A stretch of DNA of 64,000 nt from an uncultured Gammaproteobacteria bacterium (GCA_964547465.1 CAZJNI010000001.1:24205-88204); one strand, 5' to 3'; shown: positions 5,182 to 63,756, counted from the first letter of the stretch. The notes: a model not told the origin generated them from the letters alone. Program-made: numbers and translations.

Positions 5182-5564
5182 TGAATTTCAAATTTCCAAT
5201 TTCAAATTTCAAATGTCAAATTACTTTGTTACTTGTTACAAGTTATCTGTTACTTGTTACTCCTGCTCATGCCCAGGTTCCCATCAAGGACTATTTTGGC
5301 TTTGGAGATATTAAATCCTTGGGTCAGGGTACCACCAGAATTGTTATACCAATGTTTGAAATTGCTGCTTTTTTGGTTATTTTTTACTTTCTACTTGGTG
5401 CATTCAGGTTTTTGCGGGCAGGAGGAAATAAGGAAGAGGCAGAGGGTGGCAGACAAATGATTAATCATGCCATAATTGGGTTTATACTACTTATGTTTGT
5501 ATATTTACTATTTCAATTTATTCCGGATTTCTTTAATCTGCCGGGAATAGATATAATAAGATAA
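5181..5564 (+). CDS. TrbC/VirB2-like pilin paralog with signal peptide LLLVTPAHA|Q
   Basis: Same C-terminal topology (LGAFRFLRAGGNKEEAEGGRQMINHAIIGF). The first 41 nt are identical to the next gene. Confidence 0.45.
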   Translation: MNFKFPISNFKCQITLLLVTSYLLLVTPAHAQVPIKDYFGFGDIKSLGQGTTRIVIPMFEIAAFLVIFYFLLGAFRFLRAGGNKEEAEGGRQMINHAIIGFILLMFVYLLFQFIPDFFNLPGIDIIR

Positions 5565-8315: not shown

Positions 8316-10214
8316 ATGTTTAAGAAATTTATAATGTACAATTTACAATGTACAATTAAGCTTATTTTACTGCTTTTTACTTTTTACTTTTTACATTTTA
8401 CATTTTACATTACTCCAGTTCATGCCCAATCTGCCAGCCCCAGTGCAAACCAGTTACCAGTTACCAGTTACCAGTTACCTACTACTGTCTCCCCTACTTC
8501 TCCGCTTTTTACTGATCTTTTATTAAATAATATGTTTCACAGCTTTTCCTGTTTAGCCATTGGCTCATCTTTCATTGGCCAGCCTTGTTTAACTTATAAA
8601 ATCACCCAAAATGCCCAGGGGGCAATCCAATCCATTCCAGTTCTCTCTCAAACTAATCTCTCCGGAGGAGCGCTGGGGGCTACCACCTCCCTCATAGGCA
8701 TGCTCTACGTAAATCCGCCTGTCAGGACAGCAGATTATTTAGCATCAGTTGGTCAAGGATTAGGAATTGTTAAAGAAGCCCATGCCCAGGTTGGAGGGTC
8801 AGGAGCAGGAGTATTGAGCCCGATCCTATCCCTTTGGCAAGTCTCCAGAAATATTTCTTATCTGATTATGATTATAATTTTTGTAATTATTGGCTTAATG
8901 GTGATGTTCAGACAAAGGATAAATCCCCAAACAGTCATCACCGCCCAGGCAGCGCTTCCGGGTTTGGTGATTGGTCTAATCCTAATAACTTTTTCCTACT
9001 TTTTAGCAGGATTGGTAGCAGATACTGCATTTGTAGGAACAAATTTGGTTGGGGCTTATTTTTCCGCAGTCAGGGGGGAAACAAATACCCCTCAAAATTT
9101 AGTGCAGGATTTAGATACCCTAGATCCTAATACCGGTCGCAAACCAAACCTGATCAGTATTTTTAGCAAATTTGCAGTTGTTGCTAATAAAGAGAAAGTT
9201 ACTGATGTAATAAATTCTTTCTGGGATGATATTAATAATGATGCACAACGCCTTTTGGTAACACTGGCAACCTTTGTTACCGTACAGGTAGCTGGTCAGG
9301 CTACAGAATTTCTTAAACTTGTCCCTAGATTCGGCGAAGGTATAATTGCAACGATACAAGCTGTGGTCGCTCTTAATACTATTACAGGGCCTATAGGGCC
9401 CCAGGCCGTAGTAGGTGCTCTTTTTGCTTTAGTTGTTACAGCCATATTATTATATGCCATGTTTAAACTGTTAATGCGCTTGGTCAATGTTTATTTAACC
9501 ATCATATTTTTAACAATAACGGCTCCTTTCCAATTCTTAGCAGCTGCTTTACCGGGAAGACAGGGAATTGCTACCAATTGGATATTAAGCATGCTTGGAA
9601 ATATCTTGGCATTCCCGGCTGTTTTAGCTGTTTTTTATTTTGTGGCTTTTATTTTAGGTCCTGCAAATAGTCCACACCCATTTATAGTATCTGATTCAGG
9701 TGGAACAACAACTATAGTCAATAATGGTTTAGTCTCCACAGTGAAAGCTGATGGCCCTGTTGAGATTACAGGGCCTAATACTTTTCCTCTTTTTGGGGGA
9801 ATGGGTGTAGATTTTATTAAACTACTTTTGGCTTTCGGGGCATTGGTTGCAACCCCAGCAATCCCGGATATAATTGCCAGAACTGTTGGCAGTGCAAGCC
9901 AGGCAGGGCAATTGATCGGCCAGGAAATCGGTGGAAGCATTGCCGCCGGCAGAGGCTACGGCGGGCAATTACAGCAGGGGGTAGGGGCAGCCAGTGGAAA
10001 TCTTGCCAGAGCCAGAGCATTGTTTAGCACACCAGGACATAGAGTTAATGAATATGGTGAGGTTGTAGAAACATATGCACCTGGTACAGGTGGTCAAATG
10101 GGATCTATTGCTAAAAGCGGGAATATATTCGCTCGTACTATTAGAAGAATCAGTGGCGGACGTATCGGAGGAGTCCCCGAAGCAGAAAAATTCAAAAGTA
10201 CATCTACATCATAG
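8316..10214 (+). CDS. Polytopic membrane protein, VirB6/TrbL-like
   Basis: Signal peptide (TPVHA|Q), at least 6 transmembrane segments, Gly/Ala/Ser-rich C-terminal tail; positioned after the pilin array. Confidence 0.45.
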   Translation: MFKKFIMYNLQCTIKLILLLFTFYFLHFTFYITPVHAQSASPSANQLPVTSYQLPTTVSPTSPLFTDLLLNNMFHSFSCLAIGSSFIGQPCLTYKITQNAQGAIQSIPVLSQTNLSGGALGATTSLIGMLYVNPPVRTADYLASVGQGLGIVKEAHAQVGGSGAGVLSPILSLWQVSRNISYLIMIIIFVIIGLMVMFRQRINPQTVITAQAALPGLVIGLILITFSYFLAGLVADTAFVGTNLVGAYFSAVRGETNTPQNLVQDLDTLDPNTGRKPNLISIFSKFAVVANKEKVTDVINSFWDDINNDAQRLLVTLATFVTVQVAGQATEFLKLVPRFGEGIIATIQAVVALNTITGPIGPQAVVGALFALVVTAILLYAMFKLLMRLVNVYLTIIFLTITAPFQFLAAALPGRQGIATNWILSMLGNILAFPAVLAVFYFVAFILGPANSPHPFIVSDSGGTTTIVNNGLVSTVKADGPVEITGPNTFPLFGGMGVDFIKLLLAFGALVATPAIPDIIARTVGSASQAGQLIGQEIGGSIAAGRGYGGQLQQGVGAASGNLARARALFSTPGHRVNEYGEVVETYAPGTGGQMGSIAKSGNIFARTIRRISGGRIGGVPEAEKFKSTSTS

Positions 10215-13200
10215 TACCATCTTATTAAATATCCAGTCAGACCACGTGCTGCCATCGTAGAATTTTACAGTCTCATCCTTCTTTGCTACTTCAAGCTTAC
10301 CCTTATCATTATTATAATACAATTCTCCTTTTTTAATTATTTTTAAATAGTAATAAGGCTCTAGAAGGAATTTGTAGTAAGGTTCTTCAGATGGATAAAT
10401 CTCCGCTCCCCCTCCAGGTCCATGATCCAACAACCATTCCACATAAGCATCCCAAAACATTCTGGCTATATGTCTTGAAGAACCAGTATTCCTGTCTGTA
10501 TTTATAGCCGGATTATATCTGCCGTCCGGTAAAAAGACATCTGTCTTTCTCAAATCCAACGCCCCTTGCGAATTTCTATTCTCCGAGTACATTGTCCTGA
10601 TTTGCTTTAATGTATCCCATTGCCTACCAAAAGTCTCTATTATCAGATAAAAAGCATCATTTTCAAGTTTCGGATCAGATCTAGATTGATGCAATAGAGT
10701 TCTAATAGCCACTAATTTATCAGAATTATTAAGTGGTTTAAAAAATAAACCTTCATGAGGAAGCCCTGTCTTAGGATCAGTACCCCCAACTAGTAAAAAA
10801 TATAATTGATTGCCGGCATCCATCAAATTAATAAATTTAGTAATACCAAACTGACCAAGTTGTCTTTGGCCGCTTATTTTACCAATTTGATCGTCCATCA
10901 TTGAAACAGCTCCTGTTACTCCTTTACGCCCTAAGTTACCAGCCATGGTATCAGCATACATTGGTGTAGCACCCAGTGCGGCAGCAAATCTTCTGTCAAA
11001 TCTTTTTTGCATTTTGGCAACTAAGTTTTCAATCATCAAAGTGAACCTGCTGTCTCCTCCCTTATCTTCAGTGTAATATCCTGCCTGCATATACTCCGGG
11101 TTCCCATCTGCAGGCAAGAATCTCTGGCTCAAGGCTTTTTTTACCTCAACCCAACTCAATAATGATTCTTCAACTGCAGCATCAAAAACAATATATTCTA
11201 TACCCATTTGATCACCGGGAAATGATCTAACATTACTAAGAGTGGGGTCTAAAGTAAGAAGTAAGCCAGCCAAACTATCTGCATCCTCAAATCGTAACCT
11301 TCCCTCCCTTATTTGTCTTGCCTGTTCAAATACATATTTAGGTACAAGAGTATGAGTATTATTATTTTGATAGGCCCAATAAGTATGAGTAGTATGCAAA
11401 GCTAAGTAACTGCCAACAGCTTTATCAAAATCCAAATGAACCTCTTCCACGTCTTCTACAACCATTTTGCCTGTTTGTGGATCAATTTCCCCTCTGGGTT
11501 GTCTTAACATCATAGGTTGTACTCTTCCTAAAGCCTCAACAGTTATCTCTTTCTTTTTTACATCAAAAGCTGTTGCTTTAAAGTCAGTAAAGTTAAATTT
11601 TGCTTCAAATCCCTTAGTCGCAATTTGCTCAACAGCCATATCCCTAGCCTTCTCAACCATAGCATCCCTGAAAACAGCTCTAAAGTTAGGATATCTGAAG
11701 TTACCTTTGGCATCTTTTGCCTGCACAAATAACTTCAAATCATCTCTGTCCCAAATATTGGAATCGTCTGCATATCTCATCTTTGTCCAATTTACAACTG
11801 CCTGAACAGCTTTTATAGCCAAATGGGTAGGAATTTGGTCAGCATAATTTTCTTTTTCTTTGTCACTTAAACCTTGATAAATTCTCAGCTCAGCTGGATC
11901 TAAAGTATCAACTCTTTTACCCTTTACTATCTCATTCAAAATCCAGCCTACATGTTGCTCCCTTGTCCATTTATTCTTCCTTTCGTCAGGTGATAGTTCA
12001 GAATCCTTATTTTCTCTAACCTTCAGATATTCTAAAATAAAAGGATTTTTATGTACAAAATATATCCCTCCACCTCTGATTGCTTCTTCCCGCATAGCAA
12101 TTTGCATTTGCATAGCAAGTGCAAAGCTGGATTTTGAACTCTCATATGTTTCTTTATACAATTTTCTATCCTCATCACTAATTGTTTTTAAGTCTACTAA
12201 TTTATCAATTAGTACCTCATTCCTCTTTAAAATAACTTCTCCTTGTCTAACTCGCCCGCGGAGGTCAATAATTGCTTGCTGAATTCTACCTAAAGCAACA
12301 GATTCTCTTAAACCTGACGGCAACTGATCTTCAGACAATTGCGTCAATATTTGATAATTTCTAAACATTTGATAATTTCTTAAATGAGCATCTCCTTTAA
12401 TAAAACCGTTCTCATCTCTACCCATTCCTTCATATAAGCTCCTGAATGCTTCTTCAGACTGATGGATACCTATCCGCTCCTGGTTCTCTCTTAAAAGTCT
12501 TCTTGACTCAATATATAAATTCTGATCTTCCTCACTTAGAACTTGTAAATTATTTCCGTTTCTTCTCAATTGAGTTTCAATGGCCTCTAAAAGACGCGCT
12601 CTCTCGTAACGAAACTCCGGATTTGAATATGCAGCCTCATCGCGGTTATCATAATCTTTTAGCACAACACCCATCCCTCTTTCTATAATCTTTCCTTCAA
12701 TCCACATCCTGAAATAATTTTGTATATCCGAACGCCTACCTAATTGTCCTCTTGAGCCTTGGGCATTATAGGCAAGTTCAACCAACGGATCATAATCTAG
12801 TGTAAATTCATATTCTCCGGTTTCTCCTCTTCTTGACCTAAGAGCTCTAACATGCCTTTGGGGGCCTTCATGCAAAGCCAATGCCATCTCACCTTGTTTG
12901 GCTCCATCTTTATTATAATTCTCGATGTTATAGGCGATATGCCAGAAAAAGCCTTCTCCTTCAAATTCCTGTCTTAATTCTTCTGCAAATTCTAGAGTCA
13001 TTTTGTCCGGTCCTTCAGGCCAATTCTTTTGTTGTATTGCCAAATCAGTTGCGTTCCTACTCATCACTTTTTTAAAATTTATCAAATTTTGTATTAACTC
13101 ATTAGGATCATAACCTAGGGCATGAGTAAAAAGCATCTGCAGAAAAGATTCCTTGGCTATAATAAATTGGGCAGGAGTTTTAGCGTTAACTGTATAATAA

Positions 13201-14402: not shown

Positions 14403-14521
14403 GATAGTTTGTAGTTGGTAGTTAGTAGTATGTAGTTTGCAACAAACTACGAACTCGAAAACTCTATGGCTAATTCCAGTGTAGAGCTTCGGTTAACTAA
14501 CTGTCAACTTTCCTTTCTGCG

Positions 14522-14584
14522 GTAAGTTTACAGTGAGCGAAGTTAAACTGCTTGATTTATTCCTTACAAAATCCTGACGGAATT
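14522..14584. repeat. Cassette boundary repeat A, copy 1
   Basis: GTAAGTTTACAGTGAGCGAAGTTAAACTGCTTGATTTATTCCTTACAAAATCCTGACGGAATT; near-identical at 16688-16749, partial at 15987-16022. Confidence 0.8.
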
Positions 14585-14598
14585 GAGGGTAAAAATTG

Positions 14599-15756
14599 CT
14601 AAAGTTGAAAACCGTAAATGGTCTTAATATCAGAATACTCAAATGAAACCATATTACTTACCTTTAATTTAAGCTCTTTAACTAATCTCTGCAGTCTTGA
14701 TTTATCAAAAACAGTAGCTTTTGTTTTAACTTCATAAGCTATCTGTTTGTTAAGAATAAAATCTATCTCCACCCCACTTTTACGCTGATAGTAGTTTATA
14801 CCTCCTTTAGCACGTAACTGATTATAAACTGTATTTTCAAAAAGACTGCCAAAAGGAATATTTTGTATGTTGTTAACTAAACCACTGTCACAAAGATATA
14901 CCTTTTTTGCCGATCTTATTTCCGTATCTTTATTTGTGGAGTATGGCAAGATAAGCGATATAAAATACGTCCCCTCCAAAAAGGCAAGATATTCCGTCAA
15001 TGTTACTCTGGTTATACCTAATTCAGTAGATAATTTTTGCACGTCAATTTTGCTGCCTACCCTACTTATTAGCAGGAGTATTAAATCTCTAACCGCCTGA
15101 TTATTTCTAAATCCCCCGATGTTTAAAACCTCTTTATTAAAATAAGCACTAAATATATCCATTAGGGCTTCGCGCTTCTCCTCTATTGATGTTTTTATAA
15201 CTACGCCTGGAAAACCACCAAACTCAATATATTCTTTGTACAATGGAATTATTATCTGATAAATAGAATCAGAAATCTTTTCAGGGATAATAATTTTACT
15301 TTCTTTAAGAAGCAAAAATTCTTCAAAATCCAAAGGAAATAATTCGTAAATTATTTTTCTGCCAGCAAGAGATTCGGAAAATAAATTTTTAAGATAAAAA
15401 CTACTTGAACCTGTAAGAAAAAACTTAATCTGATAATGATCGATCAGATATTTAACTACAGATGGTAAGTTTGAAACATTTTGTATTTCGTCTAAAAATA
15501 TATAGGCTTTTTGAGATAAATCTATACCTAAAGTCTGGAATTTATATTTAATTGCCTCATAATTTACTTCTTCAAAGTACTTTTGGTTAACAGGATTTTC
15601 CAAATCAAGAAAAATTTTATTATCACTCTTTATAGAATCATGTACTTGCTTCAGCAATATTGTTTTACCAACTCTACGCATACCAGTCACCACAATCGCT
15701 TCCGGCGCATCTATTCTGGAGGTAATTTGCTTAAATAATTTCCTTCTCACAATCAC
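14599..15756 (-). CDS. AAA+ ATPase (AAA_14/DUF4143-type), paralog-like of the 1687 gene
   Basis: Walker A GMRRVGKT, Walker B IFLDEIQ. Confidence 0.7.
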   Translation of the reverse strand: MIVRRKLFKQITSRIDAPEAIVVTGMRRVGKTILLKQVHDSIKSDNKIFLDLENPVNQKYFEEVNYEAIKYKFQTLGIDLSQKAYIFLDEIQNVSNLPSVVKYLIDHYQIKFFLTGSSSFYLKNLFSESLAGRKIIYELFPLDFEEFLLLKESKIIIPEKISDSIYQIIIPLYKEYIEFGGFPGVVIKTSIEEKREALMDIFSAYFNKEVLNIGGFRNNQAVRDLILLLISRVGSKIDVQKLSTELGITRVTLTEYLAFLEGTYFISLILPYSTNKDTEIRSAKKVYLCDSGLVNNIQNIPFGSLFENTVYNQLRAKGGINYYQRKSGVEIDFILNKQIAYEVKTKATVFDKSRLQRLVKELKLKVSNMVSFEYSDIKTIYGFQL

Positions 15757-15851
15757 TAATATACATTAAGTATTACTTTTTGTCAAGTACTAGTATCAAA
15801 CTCGTTTGTTGATCTGCCATAAGTCTTTCTGCCATGTATTCCTTTCTCTGG

Positions 15852-15890
15852 AAAATTCCATGGCCTGCTTTCAGCATAGAATTTCCCAAA
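15852..15890. repeat. Cassette boundary repeat B, copy 1
   Basis: AAAATTCCATGGCCTGCTTTCAGCATAGAATTTCCCAAA; copies at 17509-17564 and 18404-18441, which extend with AAATCCTGACGGGATT shared with repeat A. Confidence 0.8.
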
Positions 15891-15986
15891 CTTTGTGTCA
15901 AATTTTTTTAATGTGTCATGAGTCATGTGTCAGGTATCATGCCAAGACCATGACACTTGATACATGATACTTGATACACTACAAGT

Positions 15987-16022
15987 TGCTTGATTTATTC
16001 CTTACAAAATCCTGACGGAATT
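15987..16022. repeat. Repeat A, partial copy
   Basis: TGCTTGATTTATTCCTTACAAAATCCTGACGGAATT, abutting the stop codon of the PIN gene. Confidence 0.75.
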
Positions 16023-16395
16023 ATGCCTGAATTAAGGAGAGATCATACTTCCAGATCTTTTCGTCAGATGTTATGAGAGTTAAATTTTCTACTTTTGTCT
16101 GGGATATTAAAATCCTATCAAATGGGTCTTTATGAATACCAGGTAATTTCTCAACTTCCAATACATGATTAATATCTATGGAAAGTAGAACAAAGTTACT
16201 TTTTTTAATTCCTCCTAGGATATCTTTTGGGATTTTTAAACCTTTTCTCTTTTTAATAATGATCTCCCAAATAGTTGTAACACTAACAAATATTTCGTTG
16301 TTTGGATCAGAAATTTTACTTTTAATATCTCGGGGTAATCTTTTATTTTCCTCCATAGCCCAAATAAAAACATGGGTATCTAAGAGATAGCGCAT
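16021..16395 (-). CDS. vapC: PIN-domain toxin (VapC-like)
   Basis: MRYLLDTHVFIW..., PIN acidic residues. Confidence 0.75.
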   Translation of the reverse strand: MRYLLDTHVFIWAMEENKRLPRDIKSKISDPNNEIFVSVTTIWEIIIKKRKGLKIPKDILGGIKKSNFVLLSIDINHVLEVEKLPGIHKDPFDRILISQTKVENLTLITSDEKIWKYDLSLIQA

Positions 16396-16635
16396 TTAAA
16401 TGTCACCTTCATAGAAGAGCTTATTGATCTCTTCATCCTCATCATCAAAATTATCTGGAATAAAAACCTTTCCTTTCCACAGCCCCAGTTTGCGTGGCTT
16501 AAGCTTTTCTTTATAAAAAGAAAGTTTGGCCACTGGTTTACCTGCCTTGGCGATAATAACCTCCTCACCATTTAAGGTTTTCTCAATTAACTTAGATAAA
16601 TTTGTTTTTGCATCATGAATATTCACAACTTGCAT
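16396..16635 (-). CDS. Type II antitoxin (Phd/YefM-like)
   Basis: 79-aa protein upstream of and abutting the PIN gene; AKTNLSKLIE motif. Confidence 0.55.
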   Translation of the reverse strand: MQVVNIHDAKTNLSKLIEKTLNGEEVIIAKAGKPVAKLSFYKEKLKPRKLGLWKGKVFIPDNFDDEDEEINKLFYEGDI

Positions 16636-16687
16636 ATTATTTATATAATAGCTAACTTAGCTAACTTTGTCAAGTGCAAGTCTGGGA

Positions 16688-16749
16688 TAAGTTTACAGTG
16701 AGCGAAGTTAAACTGCTTGATTTATTCCTTACAAAATCCTGACGGAATT
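16688..16749. repeat. Repeat A, copy 2
   Basis: Near-identical to 14522-14584. Confidence 0.8.
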
Positions 16750-16753
16750 AAAT

Positions 16754-17179
16754 CTAAAGTAGATTCATCTTCCGCAGAAAAGGCAAAAATGCTTCCGGCT
16801 TTACAATCTTTGCGTCTTTCCACATTTGATCTGGTAAATCTAAAAGATCTTTATCCCGGGTAATAATGTAATCAACATGGGCAGTTTCAGCCAGCTCCAG
16901 GACAAAATTATCTTTGGGGTCGCGGCAAACAATAATCTTTATTTTGGTTTTAACTGCTATACCTTTTTTCAATACTGCTTTGACCTTCTTACGTATCTCT
17001 TCACTTGAGTTAAACTCGTTTAATTTCCTAAATATTTCATTTGTTAAATCAAAGGAAATAAAAAGTTTAAGTTTATTATCAATAATAAGATCGATAATTT
17101 TCTCTACCATTCCACCAAACACAGATGCGGAGATAACCATGTTGGTATCCAGCACTATTTTAAGCATGCTTGTGGTCAT
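16754..17179 (-). CDS. PIN-domain toxin (TIGR00305-like)
   Basis: VLDTNMVIS...ITRDKDLLDL. Confidence 0.65.
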   Translation of the reverse strand: MTTSMLKIVLDTNMVISASVFGGMVEKIIDLIIDNKLKLFISFDLTNEIFRKLNEFNSSEEIRKKVKAVLKKGIAVKTKIKIIVCRDPKDNFVLELAETAHVDYIITRDKDLLDLPDQMWKDAKIVKPEAFLPFLRKMNLL

Positions 17180-17465
17180 CCAGAAAGATGTTATAAAACT
17201 GCTGTTCTGTGACCTTTTTTGGATCTAAACCTTTCTCTCTCATAAGTTTATTGCCTAATTTCTTACCCTCTTTCTTTAAATGTTCCCACGCTTCCCTGAT
17301 TTTCTGATCTTTTTCTAAAAATTCCTCTTGTTCGTTAATATACTTCTCGGACAAAGCCACTTTAATAATATCTGCTTCGGAAAGCAGCTGATACTTACTG
17401 CGTAAAAATGTCAAAACTCTATTAACATCAGGAGTTCTGGTTAATCTTATTTGTGCTTGTGACAT
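17160..17465 (-). CDS. Putative antitoxin partner
   Basis: Small ORF overlapping the PIN gene start; operon position. Confidence 0.35.
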   Translation of the reverse strand: MSQAQIRLTRTPDVNRVLTFLRSKYQLLSEADIIKVALSEKYINEQEEFLEKDQKIREAWEHLKKEGKKLGNKLMREKGLDPKKVTEQQFYNIFLDDHKHA

Positions 17466-17508
17466 ATAGTACCCATTTTAGGGTATTAAGTGTTAAGAGT
17501 CAAGGGGT

Positions 17509-17564
17509 CAAAATTCCATGGCCTGCTTTCAGCATAGAATTTCCCAAAAAATCCTGACGGGATT
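17509..17564. repeat. Repeat B, copy 2
   Basis: Sequence identity to 15852-15890 plus AAATCCTGACGGGATT. Confidence 0.8.
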
Positions 17565-17573
17565 GAGCTTGGA

Positions 17574-18002
17574 TTATTTATTTGCTCTAAGAATTCCCAT
17601 AAATTCTTCGGGGGTGATAATTTTAATCCCTTGGTATTGATTAAGGTCAAGTAAATCTCTATCTCTACTGACAATATAATCAGCTTTCCCTTCAAGCGCT
17701 GCTGAAAGAATTTTATCATCTGATGGATCTCTTACTACTTCTATTCTAAAATTACCGGTGACAGATAAACTGACTCTGGATAATCCGTTCATTATCTCCT
17801 GTAACTCTTTATCAGATCTTTTGTGGGCTTTTATCACTTTTTCTCGATGCAAAACTTCATCAAGCTCTGACAAAATTTGTGGAGAAATTACCAGTACAAA
17901 GTGATTATCTTTGCAATTTTGATAAATCTCAGCAGCTACAGACGATCCAATGTTGATAACAGCGCTAACTAAAGTATTCGTGTCTAATACTGTTCGAATC
18001 AT
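17574..18002 (-). CDS. PIN-domain toxin (TIGR00305-like), paralog of the 16754 gene
   Basis: VLDTNTLVSA...IVSRDRDLLDL. Confidence 0.65.
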   Translation of the reverse strand: MIRTVLDTNTLVSAVINIGSSVAAEIYQNCKDNHFVLVISPQILSELDEVLHREKVIKAHKRSDKELQEIMNGLSRVSLSVTGNFRIEVVRDPSDDKILSAALEGKADYIVSRDRDLLDLNQYQGIKIITPEEFMGILRANK

Positions 18003-18316
18003 TCACCTCTAGCCCTTTTCTCTGCCCTAACCACTTCCACCTCCTCATCAATAATTTTATCTAATTCTACTGGGTCCATTTTAGGGATTCTAGCTCGTAT
18101 TTTATCAAGTTTTTTGAAACTTTTTTCCCATGCAGTCTTGCTTAACCTCTTCCTAGGATCCAAAAGCTTTTCGTATTCATCCAAACTGATAAGAACAGCT
18201 GCTTCCCGGTTGTACTTTTTAACCACTACCTTATCATTAGCATATGTTACGCGGTTGATAATATCAGCCAGGTTGGAACGAAGCTCATCAATGGAAACGA
18301 TATTATCGTTTAACAT
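17999..18316 (-). CDS. Antitoxin (Phd/YefM-like)
   Basis: IVSIDELRSNL...VVVKKYNREAAVLISLDEYEKL. Confidence 0.5.
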   Translation of the reverse strand: MLNDNIVSIDELRSNLADIINRVTYANDKVVVKKYNREAAVLISLDEYEKLLDPRKRLSKTAWEKSFKKLDKIRARIPKMDPVELDKIIDEEVEVVRAEKRARGE

Positions 18317-18403
18317 GTCTATACATTATAACAAATCTAGCAATTTGTCAAGTCTGCTACATTCGTCATGTTTTTCCCTTTCGACTTTGCTCAAGGTTAT
18401 TAA

Positions 18404-18441
18404 CTTCAGCATAGAATTTCCCAAAAAATCCTGACGGGATT
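18404..18441. repeat. Repeat B, copy 3 (partial)
   Basis: CTTCAGCATAGAATTTCCCAAAAAATCCTGACGGGATT. Confidence 0.75.
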
Positions 18442-18453
18442 AAGGGTAATCCT

Positions 18454-18903
18454 TTAGAAATCCTTTATATCTAATACTTTAATTTCATTATATAACTTGA
18501 AATCTTTGACATTCGCAGTAACTATTTGTTTAATTTGGTTTGACAACATGGTGGCCACAAGATATGCATCAAAAACTTGCCCGTTTTTAATCTTATTCTT
18601 GGTCATAAGCATGGATAATATCTTAATAGTTTCCTGATTAGGAATAACTACCTTAAAAGGTAATTTCAAATAATATTCAGATAGTTCTTGAGCTTTTAGC
18701 GATGAAAGTGGTTTAGCAACTCTTCTTTGATCTGTAATGATTGAATAAAATTCTAAAAGATTCTGTTGAGTCAAAATTCCTCTGAAGCGCCCTGCAATCA
18801 CTTCTTTGACTAAAGCTAAAGATTTTCTATGAAAAGGGCTATCCTGATTATGAGCATAGACTAAAATATTAGTATCAAAAAGCAACGGGTCAGATACTAT
18901 CAT
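18454..18903 (-). CDS. PIN-domain toxin
   Basis: LLFDTNILVYA... PIN-like N-terminus. Confidence 0.55.
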   Translation of the reverse strand: MIVSDPLLFDTNILVYAHNQDSPFHRKSLALVKEVIAGRFRGILTQQNLLEFYSIITDQRRVAKPLSSLKAQELSEYYLKLPFKVVIPNQETIKILSMLMTKNKIKNGQVFDAYLVATMLSNQIKQIVTANVKDFKLYNEIKVLDIKDF

Positions 18904-19111
18904 AGATTTGCACTCTTCTCATGTCACCTTTAATCTCACCCATGTTATAGACTTTTAAATTGTATTTAACACTCTTTCTTATTTGGGGTTTGCCAAGATA
19001 GCTTTCTAAAGCTTGATTAACTATATCTGCAAAAGCAATTCTTTCATCTATAGCTTTTTTGCGGGCCTCTTTAAATATATCTTCCTGCAGCCTTACTGTA
19101 GTACGGATCAT
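18890..19111 (-). CDS. Ribbon-helix-helix antitoxin
   Basis: 73-aa ORF overlapping the toxin start; RHH-like N-terminus. Confidence 0.45.
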   Translation of the reverse strand: MIRTTVRLQEDIFKEARKKAIDERIAFADIVNQALESYLGKPQIRKSVKYNLKVYNMGEIKGDMRRVQIYDSI

Positions 19112-20594: not shown

Positions 20595-20917
20595 ATGCTC
20601 CTGTTCACGGGACTAAAAATGTGGTCGGTCTCCTGACTTAAAGTTAGGTTGTAGGTGGTAGGTTTTAGGTTATAGCTCTCTTGCGATCACTACAACCTAC
20701 TCACTACTAGCTACCAACTAGCTAATCACAGTTGCGGCACAGCCCAGGATTTACACCTGGTTCCCATTGTTCCTTTCAGCCAAAGGCTGATGGTACACCA
20801 CACCTTTAAAATAACATCTCAAAACTCAAATGTCAAAACTCAAAACTATAACTCAAATGTTAAAACTTTTAAAGATTTTAGATTTAAGATATAGATTTGA
20901 CATTTGAGATCTAAGAT

Positions 20918-28449: not shown

Positions 28450-28452
28450 TTT

Positions 28453-28483
28453 CAGTCGTCAGTCGTCAGTCGTCAGTCGTCAG
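28453..28483. repeat. Tandem heptamer (CAGTCGT) x4.4 immediately upstream of the dnaN ATG
   Basis: Direct reading of the sequence. Confidence 0.9.
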
Positions 28484-32585: not shown

Positions 32586-33430
32586 AAGAGATTGGGGATA
32601 TCTTTAATTTAGTTTTCATGGGTCCGGTTATAAATTTGCTGGTGTTAATCTTTCAGGGTTTACAGGCTATTCATATACCCGGTGCCTTAGGTTTTGCCAT
32701 AGTATTTTTAACTGTTTTAATAAGGATTTTAGTTTGGCCTTTTATGTCAAGTCAGATAAAAGCCACTAAAAAAATGGCAGATCTTAAACCGCATTTAGAT
32801 GAGTTAAAGGTAAAACATAAGGGTGATAAACAAGGACTAGCTTCTGCCCAGATGGCTTTATACAAAGAACATGGGGTTAACCCGGCAGGAGGATGTTTGC
32901 CGGCTATAATTCAAATCCCCATCTTTATTGCTCTTTATCAATCAATCATTAATATTTTGCCAGGAGCAGGCGGGCATATAGAAAACATCAATTCGCTTTT
33001 ATATTTTCCACAATTTAAGCTTTCAGGAAACTTAGATCCAAATTTTTTCGGTCTTAATTTAGGGCTAAAACCATCTGAATTTGGAAGTCATGGAATTTTG
33101 CTTCTTTTAATACCACTGGCTACAGCAGCTTTAACTTTTGTGCAGTCTAAAATGGCTCTTCCTAAAGTAATTAAAACCTATCCTTCGGATTCTCCAAAAG
33201 AGAAAAAGGAGAAGGAGGGAATTGAAGAGAGTATGGGGGCAGTGCAGTCCCAAATGGTTTATATGATGCCTATAATGATTGGCTATTTTGCTTTTTCTTT
33301 CCCCATAGGCCTTGCAATTTACTGGAATACGTATACAATACTGGGGATTATCCAGCAACATCGGATTTCCGGCTGGGGAGGAGCCGCGGACTTTGTCAGC
33401 GGAATTAAAAATTTAAAATTTAAAATTTAA
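32582..33430 (+). CDS. yidC: Membrane protein insertase YidC (short form)
   Basis: Five transmembrane segments; PFMSSQIKATKKMADLKP; synteny. Confidence 0.85.
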   Translation: MKEIGDIFNLVFMGPVINLLVLIFQGLQAIHIPGALGFAIVFLTVLIRILVWPFMSSQIKATKKMADLKPHLDELKVKHKGDKQGLASAQMALYKEHGVNPAGGCLPAIIQIPIFIALYQSIINILPGAGGHIENINSLLYFPQFKLSGNLDPNFFGLNLGLKPSEFGSHGILLLLIPLATAALTFVQSKMALPKVIKTYPSDSPKEKKEKEGIEESMGAVQSQMVYMMPIMIGYFAFSFPIGLAIYWNTYTILGIIQQHRISGWGGAADFVSGIKNLKFKI

Positions 33431-33455
33431 AATTTGGGAAGAAACAACAAAAACC

Positions 33456-40864: not shown

Positions 40865-41032
40865 TTGGTAGAATGTAGCTAGTAGTATGTAGTAAGGGTT
40901 CTAAACACGACTTTTAATACTTTTTATCAAGCCGTTTAGGAGTTTGTGTCCCGCTTGCCATACATAAAGATCTGTAAATGAGGTTATTTTTGTCTTATCC
41001 ATACTACATTCTACATACTACTTACTACTAAC
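40865..41032. repeat. Inverted blocks of GTAG heptamer repeats flanking a ~100 nt spacer, between rplY and valS
   Basis: Left block TTGGTAG AATGTAG CTAGTAG TATGTAG (40865-40896). Right block CCATACTAC ATTCTAC ATACTAC TTACTAC (40999-41032), the reverse-complement type. Confidence 0.8.
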
Positions 41033-43231
41033 TTCAGGCCATTTTGTGATCATGATGGATTTTCCGTTGTGAGGCAGTTTTTGCCAGAGTTCTTCTGTGA
41101 TATATGGCATAAAGGGATGAAGAAGCTCCAGGGAGGTTTTGAAGACATATTCCAGGGTTGGTTGGGCCTCGGTGCGTCTTTCTTTGGTACTTTCAATATA
41201 TTTATCTGCAAACTCATGCCAGATAAATTCATAAAGTTGACTTGCCCCATCATGTAATCTGAATGTTTCCAGAGCTTTGGTGACTATTTCTATAGTTTTT
41301 CTAAGTTTTTCTAATATGTCTTTGTCATCCTTATTGTCATTGCGAGGGATGTACCAGACGGTACGTCCCGTAGCAATCTTTCTTTTGTCAAGATTCCTAC
41401 GCTCGCTTCGCTCGCTCGGAATGACACTTAGGTGCTTGGCATTCTCTGGCGCGAAATCAATTATAAATCTAGCTATATTCCAGAGTTTATTGGTAAAGTT
41501 TCTCATAGCCTGCAGTTTTGGATGAGACAGAGCCTGATCATGGCCAAAAGCAGTCCCGTAAACTAGAGCCATTCTGACTGCATCTGCTCCGTAAAGGTCA
41601 GCAGTTTCCATTGGATTTACCACATTGCCTTTAGATTTACTCATTTTTTTGCCTAGCGGATCAAGTATTTTTCCATGCAGAATCACATCTTCAAAAGGTA
41701 TTTTACCTGTGGAGTAAATGCCCAGCATGATCATTCTGGCCACCCAAAATAGCAGGATGTCGTAGCCTGTTTCCATGACCGAGGTTGGATAAAACTTATC
41801 AAAATCACCAGGCTGGCTTGCCTTTAGCGTAGCGAAGGGCCACTGACCAGAGGAAAACCAGGTATCAAATACATCAGGGTCACGTTCTAAACTGACATTG
41901 CCGCAATTATTGCATACATCAGGCGTTTCGCCTTCAGTGACTGTCCATTTTTGGCACTCCTCACAAAACCAGGCCGGAATTTGCATGCCCCAGACAATTT
42001 GCCTACTGATATTCCAGTCTTTAATGTTTTTTAGCCAGTTAAAATAAGTTGTTTCCCAGTTCTTGGGATAAATTTTAATATCACCTTTTTTAACCACCTC
42101 AATTGCAGATGTGGCTAAACTTGAAACTTTAATAAACCATTGTTCCATTGGCAGAGGTTCTATCTCTGTTCCGCATTTATAGCAGGTGGCCACCCTGTTT
42201 TGATACTCATAATCTATTTTTTCAATTAAGCCTTTTTCCTCCATTTCCTGGGCAATTGTCTGCCTTGCTTCTTTAACCCTCATCCCGGAAAATTTGCCGG
42301 CTTTTTCATTTAATCTGCCGTCATAACCAATCACCTGACGAACCTCCAGATTATGTCTTTGGCCTATTTCAAAGTCCACTGCAGAATGAGCAGGAGTAAC
42401 TTTAACAACCCCTGTTCCGAATTCTTTATCAACAGCCTGATCAGCTACAACTTTGATTTTTCTTTTTCCTAAAACAGTTTCAATATCAATTTCTTGGCCA
42501 ATATATTTAAGGTAGCGTTTATCATCAGGATGGACTGCCACTGCTGTATCGCCAAATTTAGTTTCCAAACGCACGGTTGCTAAGGTCAGCGGGCCATATT
42601 TCATATAGTAAAGTGGAGTTTTCCGATCCTCATAAATTACTTCCAAATCGGAAAAGCTGGTGCCATGCTTGGTACAAAAATTGACAATTCTATTGCCCCG
42701 GTAAATTAAACCTTCATCAAACATTTTCTTGAATGTTTTATAAACAATTTTGACAATATCCGGGTCAAGGGTGAATTTATATCTGGACCAATCAAGTGAA
42801 AATCCTAAACGTCGCAGTTGTCCTTCCATAGTGCCTTTGTTTTCCTGAACAAAGTCCCAGATCATTTGGTAGAGCTCTTCACGTTTGTAATCAAATCTGG
42901 ATTTTCCCTGTTTTTCCAGATGTTTTTCAAAAACCACCTGGGTTTCAAAGCCGGCATGGTCTGCTCCGGGCAGCCATAAAGTAGCTTTTCCTTTCATTCT
43001 GTGAAATCTGACTAATATATCCTCTACCACATACATGGCATGGCCAAAATGAAGCGGGGCATTGGCATTTGGTGGGGGAAGGATGATGGTATATGGTTTA
43101 CCATCAGGGTTTATTTCAGGCTTAAAATAGCCGGAATCTTCCCAAAGTTTATACCATTTAGGTTCAACTTTTGTCTGGTCATATATCTTATTCATGAACT
43201 TAAGTATAATCAGGATTAAGCCCGAGGTCAA
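41018..43231 (-). CDS. valS: Valine--tRNA ligase (compact form) carrying an in-frame palindromic-element insertion
   Basis: HIGH motif PNANAPLHFGH, KMSKS; the two repeat elements at 41335-41424 encode about 32 extra residues. Confidence 0.9.
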   Translation of the reverse strand: MTSGLILIILKFMNKIYDQTKVEPKWYKLWEDSGYFKPEINPDGKPYTIILPPPNANAPLHFGHAMYVVEDILVRFHRMKGKATLWLPGADHAGFETQVVFEKHLEKQGKSRFDYKREELYQMIWDFVQENKGTMEGQLRRLGFSLDWSRYKFTLDPDIVKIVYKTFKKMFDEGLIYRGNRIVNFCTKHGTSFSDLEVIYEDRKTPLYYMKYGPLTLATVRLETKFGDTAVAVHPDDKRYLKYIGQEIDIETVLGKRKIKVVADQAVDKEFGTGVVKVTPAHSAVDFEIGQRHNLEVRQVIGYDGRLNEKAGKFSGMRVKEARQTIAQEMEEKGLIEKIDYEYQNRVATCYKCGTEIEPLPMEQWFIKVSSLATSAIEVVKKGDIKIYPKNWETTYFNWLKNIKDWNISRQIVWGMQIPAWFCEECQKWTVTEGETPDVCNNCGNVSLERDPDVFDTWFSSGQWPFATLKASQPGDFDKFYPTSVMETGYDILLFWVARMIMLGIYSTGKIPFEDVILHGKILDPLGKKMSKSKGNVVNPMETADLYGADAVRMALVYGTAFGHDQALSHPKLQAMRNFTNKLWNIARFIIDFAPENAKHLSVIPSERSERRNLDKRKIATGRTVWYIPRNDNKDDKDILEKLRKTIEIVTKALETFRLHDGASQLYEFIWHEFADKYIESTKERRTEAQPTLEYVFKTSLELLHPFMPYITEELWQKLPHNGKSIMITKWPEVSSK
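41335..41378. repeat. GTCATTGCGAG-hairpin-GCAATCT element, copy 1, in frame within valS
   Basis: GTCATTGCGAGGGATGTACCAGACGGTACGTCCCGTAGCAATCT. Confidence 0.85.
41391..41424. repeat. GTCATT(C)CGAG element, copy 2 (inverted), in frame within valS
   Basis: Reverse complement GTCATTCCGAGCGAGCGAAGCGAGCGTAGGAATC. Confidence 0.8.
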
Positions 43232-43242
43232 TTAAGGATGAG

Positions 43243-43629
43243 TTAACTATTTCCAACAATCAATCTTAATGGTTTAGTTTGGACTTGAGGTATTCTATGG
43301 CGACCTTTAGCCCTTTGTGTCATAAACAAAGCATTAATTCTATAGATATTACCATCAGAATCCTTTTTATAAATTGTGATTGGAGCGAATTTACCAGTTG
43401 AATCTTTTAATCTTTTAGGAAATTGATGCTCTTCAATCTCTCCTGATATTGACAGTACAACATTATAAATTCCGATATGCGCCTCATTTGCCCTTCGTGC
43501 ATCTATTATACGAGCAGATTGATTTGTAATAGGGACAGCTATAGCTATCAGTTGATCACGCTCTTCGCTATTGACTATGAAAACTTGCCCTGGTGAAGCT
43601 ATTTGTTCATTCTCTACACTTACAGCCAT
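43243..43629 (-). CDS. Hypothetical protein (weakly MazF/PemK-like)
   Basis: ORF only; weak pattern similarity. Confidence 0.3.
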   Translation of the reverse strand: MAVSVENEQIASPGQVFIVNSEERDQLIAIAVPITNQSARIIDARRANEAHIGIYNVVLSISGEIEEHQFPKRLKDSTGKFAPITIYKKDSDGNIYRINALFMTQRAKGRHRIPQVQTKPLRLIVGNS

Positions 43630-43666
43630 ATTAATTGGTAGATTTTAGGTTTAAGTTGCCGAGATG

Positions 43667-44818
43667 TCAAGCCATAGACAAATTTGGATCTGCCTGTAAG
43701 GATAAAGGATCTTTAGTAGGTTTTGTAAAAAAAGCTGCTGCTGCAATCATGGCTCCATTGTCTGTACACAGATTTGGTTCCGGTATGTGAAGTTTGATAT
43801 TTAAACCTTGATTCTTAATTCTTGATTCTAAATTCTCTTTCAGTTTTCTGTTAGCTGCAACACCACCTGCAATCATTACATCTTTTACTGGATAAATCTT
43901 TAAAGCCAGCATGACTTTGTCGATTAAAGATATAACAATAGTTTCCTCAATTGCTGCAGCTAAATCTTGCCTCACCTCCGAGGTGTAAGACATTTTTTTC
44001 ACCTCGGAGGTGTGGACTAAGTTCGCAACTGCTGTTTTTAAACCAGAGTATGAAAAGTCCAAGTCCTTTGATCCTTTCATAGGAACAGGGAGTTTGAACC
44101 TTAAGGCCTGGCCTTGCGAGGCTAATTTAGAAATCTCTGGACCGCCTGGGTATGGAAGGCCTAAAAGACGGGCACATTTATCAAAACATTCCCCGGCCGC
44201 ATCATCCCTGGTTCCACCCAGGTATTTATATTTGCCATGGTCAGTAAACAGGACTAAATCTGTATGGCCGCCGGAAACCAATAAACCGAGGCAAGGGAAG
44301 TTTGGTACTTCAAAATTGTCATTGCGAGGAGCCGAAGGCGACGAAGCAATCTGGGTGGGGTTTATTTCTTGACTAGATTGCTTCGCTGTCGCTCGCAATG
44401 ACGAAGGAGTAATCCAGTTGGCATAAAAGTGACCAAGCAAGTGATTAACCGGAATAAGTGGTTTGTTCCAGACTAGACTTAAAGTTTTAGCTGTTTCTAC
44501 TCCTACTAAAAGCGATCCAATTAATCCCGGGCCATAAGTGACAGCTATTGCATCTATCCCAATCCCGTCATTGCGAGCCCCGAAGGGACGTGGCAATCTT
44601 TTTTTAGGAAAGACTTGAGTTAACGCTTCTTCAATCACAGGAATTATAGATTTTATCTGCTCACGAGCAGCTTGTTCCGGGATAATTCCCCCGTATTTAG
44701 CCTGTAGAGAGGCAGATGAAGCCACCACATTGGATAATATAGTTATTCGATCTCCTTGCTTTTGTAAGATAGCACAAGCCGTCTCGTCACAAGAAGTCTC
44801 AATTCCTAAAATAATCAT
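43667..44818 (-). CDS. tsaD: tRNA N6-adenosine threonylcarbamoyltransferase TsaD with three in-frame palindromic-element insertions
   Basis: GIETSCDET, GPGLIGSLLVG and LLVSGGHT motifs; inserted segments KKRLPRPFGARND and SSLRATAKQSSQEINPTQIASSPSAPRND. Confidence 0.9.
   Translation of the reverse strand: MIILGIETSCDETACAILQKQGDRITILSNVVASSASLQAKYGGIIPEQAAREQIKSIIPVIEEALTQVFPKKRLPRPFGARNDGIGIDAIAVTYGPGLIGSLLVGVETAKTLSLVWNKPLIPVNHLLGHFYANWITPSSLRATAKQSSQEINPTQIASSPSAPRNDNFEVPNFPCLGLLVSGGHTDLVLFTDHGKYKYLGGTRDDAAGECFDKCARLLGLPYPGGPEISKLASQGQALRFKLPVPMKGSKDLDFSYSGLKTAVANLVHTSEVKKMSYTSEVRQDLAAAIEETIVISLIDKVMLALKIYPVKDVMIAGGVAANRKLKENLESRIKNQGLNIKLHIPEPNLCTDNGAMIAAAAFFTKPTKDPLSLQADPNLSMA
44318..44352. 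repeat. GTCATTGCGAG element, copy 3 (in tsaD)
   Basis: GTCATTGCGAGGAGCCGAAGGCGACGAAGCAATCT. Confidence 0.85.
44376..44407. repeat. GTCATTGCGAG element, copy 4 (inverted; in tsaD)
   Basis: Reverse complement CCTTCGTCATTGCGAGCGACAGCGAAGCAATC. Confidence 0.85.
44567..44599. repeat. GTCATTGCGAG element, copy 5 (in tsaD)
   Basis: GTCATTGCGAGCCCCGAAGGGACGTGGCAATCT. Confidence 0.85.
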
Positions 44819-62408: not shown

Positions 62409-63665
62409 TTAAGTTCCTTCGTTCCAGGAGGATAGGTATTTTTCCTGCTCGGAGGTGAGTTTATCTATTTTTATGCCTAATGATTCTAGCTTAAGAGAAG
62501 CAATCATTTGATCCAATTCTTTGGGGATGGTGTGTACGCCAACTTTTAATTTGCCACGGTTTTGAACTAAATATTCTGCAGCCAAAGCCTGGTTAGCAAA
62601 GCTCATATCCATTACATCAGGGGGGTGGCCTTCTGCTGAAGCCAAATTAATTAATCTACCCTCACCTAAAACAAATAGTTTTTTATTCCCCTCCAGGGTA
62701 ATCTCCTCTAAATTTTCTCTTAAGTGTCTTCTGTTTTTAGCCTCCTTAACCAATCCATCATAGTCAAACTCCACATTAAAATGTCCGGTATTGGCTACAA
62801 TCGCCCCATTTTTTAAATTTTTTAAATCAGAAAGGGAAATAACAGATTTATTACCGGTGGCTGTGCAAATAATATCAGCCAGTTTTACAGCTTGCGAGAT
62901 AGGCATGACTTCAAACCCATCCATGGTTGCCTCCAAAGCCCGGGTAGCATCTACCTCTGTAATAATTACCTGGGCTCCCATGCCTTTAGCCCTGGTGGCC
63001 AGGCCCCTGCCGCACCAGCCATAGCCTACCACCACAAATTTCTTGCCTGCCAAAAGCACATTGGTAGCCCGCAATATTCCATCAATGGTTGACTGGCCGG
63101 TGCCGTATCTATTATCAAACATATGCTTGGTGGCACTATCATTTACTGCCATCACCGGAATCTTAAGAGTCCCGTCTTCTAACATGGCCCTTAGCCTTAT
63201 TACACCGGTGGTGGTTTCCTCAGATGAGCCAATTACTTGCTTTAGTTGAGATTTTCTTTCTGTATGAAGTAATGTTACTAAATCCGCCCCGTCATCCATG
63301 GTAATTTGCGGCTTAAAATCCAAAACTTCATTTAAGTGTTTGTAATAAGTGGTGTTATCCTCACCTTTGATGGCAAAAGTTGAAATACCATAATCTTCAA
63401 CCAGTGATGCAGCTACTTCATCCTGGGTGGATAAAGGATTGGAAGCACATAAAGCTAATTCAGCCCCGCCCTCTTTTAAGGCAATCATTAAATTAGCTGT
63501 TTCAGAGGTAACATGTAAGCAAGCTCCTAAAGTGATACCTTTAAGAGGTTTTTCTTTGGCAAAACGCTCATGGATAAGCTGGAGTACTTTCATTTGTGAC
63601 CCAGCCCACTCAATGCGTAGTTTTCCTTTTGCAGCTAAATTTTTATCTTTAATATCAGATTTCAT
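62409..63665 (-). CDS. ahcY: Adenosylhomocysteinase
   Basis: NAD-binding GYGWCGRG motif; conserved AhcY N-terminus. Confidence 0.9.
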   Translation of the reverse strand: MKSDIKDKNLAAKGKLRIEWAGSQMKVLQLIHERFAKEKPLKGITLGACLHVTSETANLMIALKEGGAELALCASNPLSTQDEVAASLVEDYGISTFAIKGEDNTTYYKHLNEVLDFKPQITMDDGADLVTLLHTERKSQLKQVIGSSEETTTGVIRLRAMLEDGTLKIPVMAVNDSATKHMFDNRYGTGQSTIDGILRATNVLLAGKKFVVVGYGWCGRGLATRAKGMGAQVIITEVDATRALEATMDGFEVMPISQAVKLADIICTATGNKSVISLSDLKNLKNGAIVANTGHFNVEFDYDGLVKEAKNRRHLRENLEEITLEGNKKLFVLGEGRLINLASAEGHPPDVMDMSFANQALAAEYLVQNRGKLKVGVHTIPKELDQMIASLKLESLGIKIDKLTSEQEKYLSSWNEGT

Positions 63666-63677
63666 ATACTCTTTTAC

Positions 63678-63714
63678 GTCATTGCGAGGTCGCCAAAGGC
63701 GACCGTGGCAATCT
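63678..63714. repeat. GTCATTGCGAG element, copy 6, just upstream of the ahcY start
   Basis: GTCATTGCGAGGTCGCCAAAGGCGACCGTGGCAATCT. Confidence 0.85.
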
Positions 63715-63724
63715 ATATTAATAA

Positions 63725-63756
63725 GATTGCTTCGTCGCTACGCTCCTCGCAATGAC
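63725..63756. repeat. GTCATTGCGAG element, copy 7 (inverted), encoding the C-terminus of the kinase
   Basis: Reverse complement CCGTCATTGCGAGGAGCGTAGCGACGAAGCAATC; supplies ...YPSLRGA-stop. Confidence 0.85.

Follow-up and report, generated by a model that had tools for sequence, protein, structure and literature searches.

Two described systems come closest to the repeats considered here. CGTC-tagged repetitive extragenic palindromes (REPs) consist of a CGTC or TGTC tag, a stem whose first pairs are A-T, and a short tail. Most form dimers without a known or adjacent transposase, and copies found in frame within genes encode the peptides VIPAKAGI, SFPRKRES, DSRFRGND, and IPAFAGMT (Di Nocera et al. 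2013, PMC3733652). Among them, CGTC-1 comprises Neisseria dRS3 and the Rickettsia palindromic element RPE-6, and CGTC-4 corresponds to RPE-4 (PMC3733652). The second system is built on SsnA, a 94-aa GIY-YIG protein that cuts single-stranded DNA beside the sequence NTS (CGTCATTCCCGCGMAVGCGGGAATCYRG), where a GTC upstream of the palindrome is required for cutting and a C after the palindrome for binding; NTS-ssnA-NTS is the typical architecture, with such motifs usually on both sides of an ssn gene (PMC11893778, Nat Commun 2025;16:2388). The stretch analyzed here, 64,000 nucleotides of GCA_964547465.1 (CAZJNI010000001.1:24205-88204; hereafter the window), carries seven copies of a short CGTC- or TGTC-tagged hairpin element, five of them within the essential genes tsaD and valS of a Levybacteria-like bacterium of the Candidate Phyla Radiation (CPR). 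The in-frame position of these repeats, already noticed in the original prediction, is confirmed. The copies are probably non-autonomous members of a CGTC/TGTC-tagged, Ssn-related family of hairpin repeats, with old intragenic copies residing in harmless loops, and this family is apparently a very widespread, undescribed composite-stem branch of the CGTC-tagged, Ssn-associated repeats.

The pattern GTCATTSCGAG-N(10-36)-GSAATC matches the window seven times and is absent from 100 dinucleotide-preserving shuffles, and a generic scan for YGTC, a 5-nt stem, its complement, and C returned the same seven sites plus one chance match. The original prediction had described seven copies of about 35-45 nt with constant ends and a variable hairpin; the number and the structure hold, and the measured lengths are 28-44 nt. 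The copies have a GC content of 54-61%, compared with 37.7% for the window, and share the form GTCATT(G/C)CGAG, variable hairpin, G(G/C)AATCT, which reads as a single strand GTCATTGCGAG...GCAATCTC, or TGTCATTGCGAG-hairpin-CGAAGCAATCTC. Each unit consists of an unpaired 5' YGTC tag (CGTC in four copies, TGTC in three), a 5-bp closing stem of ATTGC/GCAAT or ATTCC/GGAAT, a conserved internal loop of GAG opposite CG(A/T/C)(A/G), a hypervariable apical hairpin, and, right after the stem, a C followed by a short T(C) tail. One of the two closing stems, with A-T pairs at positions 1 and 2, is present in all seven copies, as are the GTC directly 5' and the C directly 3' of the palindrome.

Six of the copies form three convergent pairs in which the GTC tags face outward and 9-22 nt separate the partners, an organization that the original prediction had passed over, and only e5 stands alone. 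The pair in valS (41018-43231, minus strand) comprises e1 (41336-41379, plus strand), which has a 10-bp apical stem, is read antisense by the gene, and encodes KIATGRTVWYIPRND, and, across an 11-nt spacer, e2 (41391-41425, minus strand), a sense-read variant, GTCATTCC...GGAATCT, that encodes VIPSERSERRNL and in which ATTCC/GGAAT replaces ATTGC/GCAAT through changes on both sides of the stem. In tsaD (43667-44818, minus strand, 383 aa), a heterodimer with a 22-nt spacer at the position termed site B joins a long copy, e3 (44318-44352, plus strand), read antisense and encoding QIASSPSAPRND, to a short copy, e4 (44375-44402, minus strand), which is sense-read, contains a GCGAAGC mini-hairpin, and encodes SSLRATAKQS. 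The solo copy e5 (44567-44599, plus strand) occupies site A of the same gene with 33 nt, or 11 codons, encoding RLPRPFGARND. The third dimer was correctly placed at the ahcY start and the PfkB stop: e6 (63678-63714, plus strand) is intergenic, its tag end 12 nt upstream of the ahcY ATG at 63665, and e7 (63724-63756, minus strand) overlaps the 3' end of a pfkB-family open reading frame (ORF; Pfam PF00294), supplying the last five codons (SLRGA) of its terminus ...PYPSLRGA* and the TAG at 63738-63740. All coding copies preserve the frame, as claimed, whereas the PRND/ARND-like peptides attributed to all of them are confined to the antisense-read copies, which end in ...(A/P)RND; sense-read copies yield SSLRATAKQS or VIPSERSERRNL, and the third antisense frame would carry TGA. 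As single strands, the dimers fold into long hairpins far more stable than shuffled sequence (z-scores, -5.4 to -7.2); among single copies, the folds of e1 and e6 are significant and those of the short copies are not.

The evidence linking the element to a nuclease comes from other genomes. In three loci selected by the element (L210, L158, and L156), tag-outward copies bracket an ORF for a 95-aa GIY-YIG protein (Pfam PF01541, E 1e-15 to 1e-18), further homologs of which are present in L219, L088, and L202, and among tag-outward pairs lying 150-600 nt apart this ORF is the sole recurrent bracketed gene. A second set of 80 metagenome loci was picked solely by homology to the 95-aa protein, and the 75 with sufficient flank were counted. 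An exact element in tag-outward orientation and within 160 nt lay upstream of the gene in 48/75, downstream in 50/75, on both sides in 39/75, and on neither in 16/75; the element thus adjoins the GIY-YIG gene at 59 of the 75 loci. The opposite orientation was found in 14-15, and the density more than 300 nt away was 0.28 copies per kb. The flanks typically consist of one long and one short copy, like e3 and e4 in the window. Since the 95-aa protein shares 40-48% identity over 89-95 aa with GIY-YIG proteins flanked by NTS (L400, L375, and L413), it is, on sequence grounds, Ssn-like. The GIY-YIG family is very large, and among the matches listed the annotation reads only 'GIY-YIG nuclease family protein'. 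Many homologs of the bracketed gene (P0241-P0360) lie on contigs of just 500-1000 nt, as would be expected of multi-copy units, at which metagenome assemblies break. A GIY-YIG-like ORF in Doudnabacteria (L133) has an internal stop and no flanking copies and was discarded.

The element itself is widely distributed, with at least 120 pattern matches in IMG/VR viral contigs and at least 120 in GTDB species representatives. Among the matches listed, it spans more than 15 phyla and viral contigs, with host GC contents of 32-66%, and the phyla include Patescibacteria, Chloroflexota, Planctomycetota, Bacteroidota, Firmicutes, Nitrospirota, Zixibacteria, Omnitrophota, Armatimonadota, and Ignavibacteriota, together with Alpha-, Gamma-, and Deltaproteobacteria. 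The 482 distinct interiors measure 6-45 nt; in 95% of them a C pairs with the G of GAG, and GCAAT is preceded by GAA in 57%, GTG in 24%, and GCG in 9%. Apical hairpins vary freely in sequence, the well-paired copies showing 56 different 5-nt stem halves, and an alternative apical type, GAGC...GCGAC, contains tandem G.A pairs and the GCGAAGC mini-hairpin. GTC is preceded by T in 66% and by C in 25% of 420 copies, G is scarce in the 12 nt upstream, and 68% of copies have C at the second position after GCAATCT. Of 84 element pairs no more than 60 nt apart, 56 are tag-outward. In a Chloroflexus sp. (L125, 1372-1956) and in L240 (1719-2039), 3-5 copies spaced about 50 nt apart lie apparently within ORFs and yield VIASRRRRRSNL-type peptides. 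The fraction of copies in long open frames, 7/19 in CPR and 22/198 in other phyla, is mostly driven by the window and is not relied on.

Compared with the solved structures of E. coli and Salmonella TsaD, site A (residues ~70-89) adds about 11 residues, and residues 136-170, which hold site B, align to only 4 residues; residues 580-623 of ValRS align to 591-606 of the solved T. thermophilus structure. These sizes are in line with the 13 and about 30 extra residues in TsaD and about 32 in ValRS first proposed. In an AlphaFold model of TsaD (predicted template-modeling score, 0.80), the inserts are coil, with a per-residue confidence (pLDDT) of about 65 at residues 70-89 and below 50 at residues 140-167. 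A model of a ValRS fragment places a coil (149-189) between helices of pLDDT about 96, with residues 163-178 below 50; these helices belong to the anticodon-binding domain, and the loop that joins them holds the insert. According to these models, the inserts occupy low-confidence, probably disordered loops of both proteins; the original prediction had expected surface loops. The nearest relatives are named as Levybacteria, Microgenomates, or Woesebacteria.

Neither E. coli TsaD nor T. thermophilus ValRS has the inserts, and many close orthologs lack them too. Forty TsaD orthologs that are 65-81% identical have lengths of 331-445 aa and differ by segments present or absent at a few hot spots, and the ValRS insert of the window occurs in none of the 25 ValRS orthologs aligned. 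Some of the tsaD inserts are common to orthologs at identical positions. In the DNA of nine tsaD orthologs, a site A copy lies at the identical nucleotide position in six (e5 of the window and five others). The termini of these copies, GTCATTGCGAG and CGTGGCAATCT (22 terminal nt), are identical in all six, while the codons on either side vary freely; the apical stem passes through C-G, T.G, and T-A and exists in both 5-bp and 7-bp versions. A dimer likewise occupies the identical position at site B in six orthologs, where the closing stem of the left copy appears as ATTGC/GCAAT, ATTCC/GGAAT, GTTCC/GGAAT, and GTCCT/AGGAT. All cells of this stem are paired (100%) and three of its five pairs are altered on both sides, whereas sliding the partner columns reduces pairing to 9-61%. 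The GTC and the 3' C are invariant in these orthologous copies, which were not selected by the pattern. Because the insert positions are identical in orthologs that are only about 70% identical, several of the copies are old and inherited rather than private to the genome of the window, and because all four combinations of presence and absence at sites A and B are found, gains or losses must have been repeated. The retained termini and the compensatory pairing point to a constraint at the nucleotide level or to homogenization by gene conversion.

The same loops hold other palindromes and heptamer arrays in other orthologs. In L441, the palindrome TCCTTCGACAAGCTCAGGA (peptide SFDKLRT) is nested in the apical loop of the right copy at tsaD site B (10483-10528), and the valS gene of the same locus (16191-18416) carries, at the e1/e2 site, a different insert of about 30 aa with small palindromes and decayed GTCATTC motifs, which makes this inter-helix loop a recurrent landing or tolerance site. 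Period-7 tandem arrays occur at about 25 sites in the window, mostly intergenic and in 4-6 copies of different heptamers (for example 5184-5222, 8375-8411, 28452-28483, 33403-33435, and 41000-41028), and similar in-frame arrays are present in the tsaD genes of relatives at site B in L446 and at site A in L447 and L449. The tsaD gene of the window also contains a second, unrelated palindrome pair (43973-44012), CACCTCCGAGGTG and CACCTCGGAGGTG with a 14-nt spacer, which encodes HTSEVKKMSYTSEV and is present or absent among TsaD orthologs; a related 'HLRGE...HLGG' version occurs at site B of other orthologs.

The following scenario would account for the distribution of the Ssn-related repeats. 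The autonomous unit, seen in other genomes, is the 95-aa GIY-YIG gene between two tag-outward copies, and the dimers of the window share its geometry without the gene. By analogy with Neisseria SsnA and NTS, the hairpin would form in single-stranded DNA, where the nuclease would bind and nick just 5' of the tag, and the spread of the repeats would presumably be a by-product of nicking and of host repair or recombination. Copies would survive only where they are harmless, namely in disordered surface loops of TsaD and ValRS, in stop-free frames, and at one gene junction, and the intragenic ones would be translated as 11-30 extra residues. That an Ssn-type nuclease mobilizes the repeats is something we infer from this analogy and from the bracketing geometry. 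The RPE-like character originally proposed is supported by terminal motifs common to unrelated genes and intergenic DNA, by the preserved frames, by the absence of the inserts from many close orthologs, and by their position in predicted disordered loops, and it is closer than had been noted, as the CGTC-REP superfamily includes RPE-4 and RPE-6; the selfish and mobile nature asserted along with it we likewise only infer. The original prediction was also silent on the cognate GIY-YIG (Ssn-like) gene, the wide taxonomic spread, and the shared old inserts.

Several observations weigh against this interpretation. An Ssn-like gene was found neither in the 64-kb window nor in about 100 kb of other Patescibacteria loci, and none of the best 120 Ssn-like matches is named as CPR. 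The assignment of the 95-aa protein to cd10448 is a putative one, resting on homology to NTS-flanked genes. The published Ssn-related motif (SRM), HGTCWYN(0-2)YYVSBRHN(0-5)WNVSBRGN(0-2)RNCYNB, fits 0 of 426 copies and none in the window, whereas it does fit the NTS control. The dimensions of stem and loop in CGTC-1 to -4, a continuous 8-9-bp stem with a 4-5-nt loop, are unlike those of the element, which has a 5-bp closing stem, an internal loop, and a variable apical stem of 2-10 bp. GIY-YIG enzymes form no covalent intermediate, and we know of no Ssn demonstrated to mobilize its repeats. In addition, the conservation of GTCATTGCGAG and GCAATCT in the collected copies arises partly by construction, as these were the search pattern, so that independent support comes from the protein-selected loci and the orthologous copies.

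The most serious alternative, which is possible although we consider it unlikely, is that the copies are inert fossils, acquired long ago with an Ssn unit or through DNA uptake, no longer served by any enzyme, and retained because precise deletion is rare. The failure to find an Ssn-like gene in the window and in the other Patescibacteria loci examined fits this possibility, as do the age of several inserts, which are common to distant orthologs, and the state of e5, whose apical stem is mismatched and folds no better than shuffled sequence. However, neutral decay in a disordered loop should erase the repeats, whereas the 22 terminal nt at site A are invariant in six orthologs despite free flanking codons and the closing stem at site B has been altered only by paired substitutions. 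The four combinations of sites A and B, implying repeated gains or losses, also argue against inert relics, and the view of this genome is limited to 64 kb.

The opposite possibility, bolder and distinctly improbable, is that the intragenic copies serve as working single-strand nuclease sites or gene-conversion tracts, and that the ATTGCGAG family is a pan-bacterial, phage-borne Ssn branch with modular recognition. It is suggested by the invariant termini and compensated stems in orthologs only about 70% identical, which are what maintenance as nuclease sites or conversion tracts could produce. If so, such sites might mark incoming homologous single-stranded DNA for destruction by an Ssn-type nuclease, a control on the allelic replacement of essential genes in CPR bacteria that scavenge DNA, or might act as a homing-like drive, and ATTGCGAG-type recognition would combine a fixed base with a free apical hairpin.

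There is little to recommend the idea that these are primarily RNA-level elements (a stabilizer, a processing site, or a pause or attenuator hairpin) with only a secondary link to a DNA nuclease. In its favor, the conserved hairpin shows covariation, many of the copies on phage-like contigs lie immediately before ribosome-binding sites, and many REPs have been argued to act as RNA (Di Nocera et al., PMC3733652). However, both orientations occur within one mRNA (e3/e4 and e1/e2), so that the tag and tail, being asymmetric, would give a different RNA in each; the elements match no Rfam family at gathering thresholds, nor at E values up to 1; SsnA does not bind RNA (PMC11893778); and statistically the element is associated most strongly with a gene for a DNA nuclease. 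A K-turn or another RNA motif was considered for the GAG/CGWR loop and rejected, as its register is wrong for such a motif and transcripts carry both orientations.

Mobile elements of the classical kinds appear highly improbable as a source. REPs or REPINs moved by a REP-associated tyrosine transposase (RAYT; a Y1 HUH enzyme of the IS200/IS605 type) would likewise be short palindromes forming frequent inverted dimers capable of folding into one long hairpin, and REPs do occur inside genes (PMC3733652), but the tag here is YGTC rather than GTAG, CGTC repeats have no transposase beside them (Di Nocera et al., PMC3733652), and the sole recurrent bracketed gene among tag-outward pairs 150-600 nt apart is the GIY-YIG ORF, which the element adjoins at most of the protein-selected loci (59/75). 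Hardly any greater credence can be given to miniature inverted-repeat transposable elements, that is, deletion derivatives of a DDE-transposase insertion sequence (IS) with GTCATTGCGAG as its terminal inverted repeats. The dimers do resemble short elements with 11-nt terminal inverted repeats, and a DDE-type IS lies between copies in L154; however, none of the four insertions in the window shows a target-site duplication (no flanking direct repeats), solo copies are common, and the IS in L154 has unrelated terminal repeats of its own. In this Patescibacteria contig, an IS with a 308-aa transposase-like ORF (556-1838) sits exactly between two head-to-head copies and, having inserted there with its own ends, marks the repeats as a target of the IS rather than as its termini. 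Ordinary lineage-specific protein loops sharing a motif by coincidence or assembly artifact can be virtually dismissed, for although the sites are hypervariable and hold unrelated extra sequence in other orthologs, no chance matches are expected, the same 22 terminal nt recur in tsaD, valS, intergenic DNA, and hundreds of unrelated genomes, and independent assemblies share inserts at the same positions.

Other features of the window include a cluster of PIN-domain/antitoxin (VapBC-like) pairs with an ATPase gene (14500-19100), accompanied by repeated upstream segments of 40-78 nt (families D3, D6, and D16); a weak profile match at 17574-18002 proved to be a PIN toxin. A cobalamin riboswitch (20606-20817, minus strand; Rfam RF00174, 61.8 bits) has heptamer arrays on its flanks.

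The partnership between Ssn nucleases and hairpin repeats was described only in 2025, mostly in Proteobacteria, and the interpretation favored here, an Ssn-related hairpin repeat family, would extend it to a very abundant type of repeat that the published motif misses and that reaches more than 15 phyla, phage-like contigs, and the ultra-small genomes of CPR bacteria. Orthologous copies in essential genes that keep the nuclease-recognition nucleotides and their pairing offer a natural experiment in which selection or homogenization can be tested against mere tolerance. The family would also explain the recurrent '...LRFARND / SLRG...KQS / ...LLAMT'-type peptides in metagenomic predictions and the inflated lengths of CPR proteins, and it represents a candidate new specificity for enzymes that cut single-stranded DNA.

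Collectively, the element can be placed among four known systems. In the literature searched, no description of palindromic or intragenic elements in CPR was found, and the motif and its peptides match only primers, by chance. RPE-1 (Ogata et al. 2000, as cited in PMC3733652) is reportedly palindromic, inserted in frame in functional and often essential genes, and present or absent among orthologs, and it resembles the element in being tolerated in surface-exposed protein segments. It measures about 100-150 bp, lacks a CGTC tag, and is confined to Rickettsia, and we know of no enzyme associated with it. With REP/REPIN-RAYT systems, the element shares a short hairpin with an unpaired tag, inverted dimers as the likely unit, and one small gene bracketed by its own repeats; however, the tag there is GTAG and the enzyme a Y1 HUH transposase with covalent intermediates, as opposed to a YGTC tag and a GIY-YIG nuclease. 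The likeness to the CGTC-REP superfamily extends to the CGTC/TGTC tag, the A-T first stem pairs, the short unpaired tail, the predominance of dimers, in-frame copies in housekeeping genes, and peptides of the forms VIP..., S-L/F-R/P..., ...RGND/...ND, and ...AMT, whereas the tail is CCA in CGTC-1 to -4 and CT(C) in the element, and CGTC-1 to -4 have been seen mostly in Alphaproteobacteria. Compared with Ssn/NTS, the element has the stem ATTGC instead of ATTCCC, reaches a total of about 60 nt, and has a helix that the conserved GAG/CGWR internal loop breaks and that ends in a hypervariable hairpin; its sampled hosts are mostly uncultivated phyla and phage-like contigs, whereas SRM hosts are Pseudomonadati symbionts, and cleavage, shown for SsnA and NTS, is for the element a prediction by analogy. 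The two nonetheless have in common a 5' GTC beside an A-T-initiated palindrome, a C after the palindrome, hundreds of dispersed copies and dimers, and tag-outward copies that bracket a single-domain GIY-YIG gene of about 95 aa.

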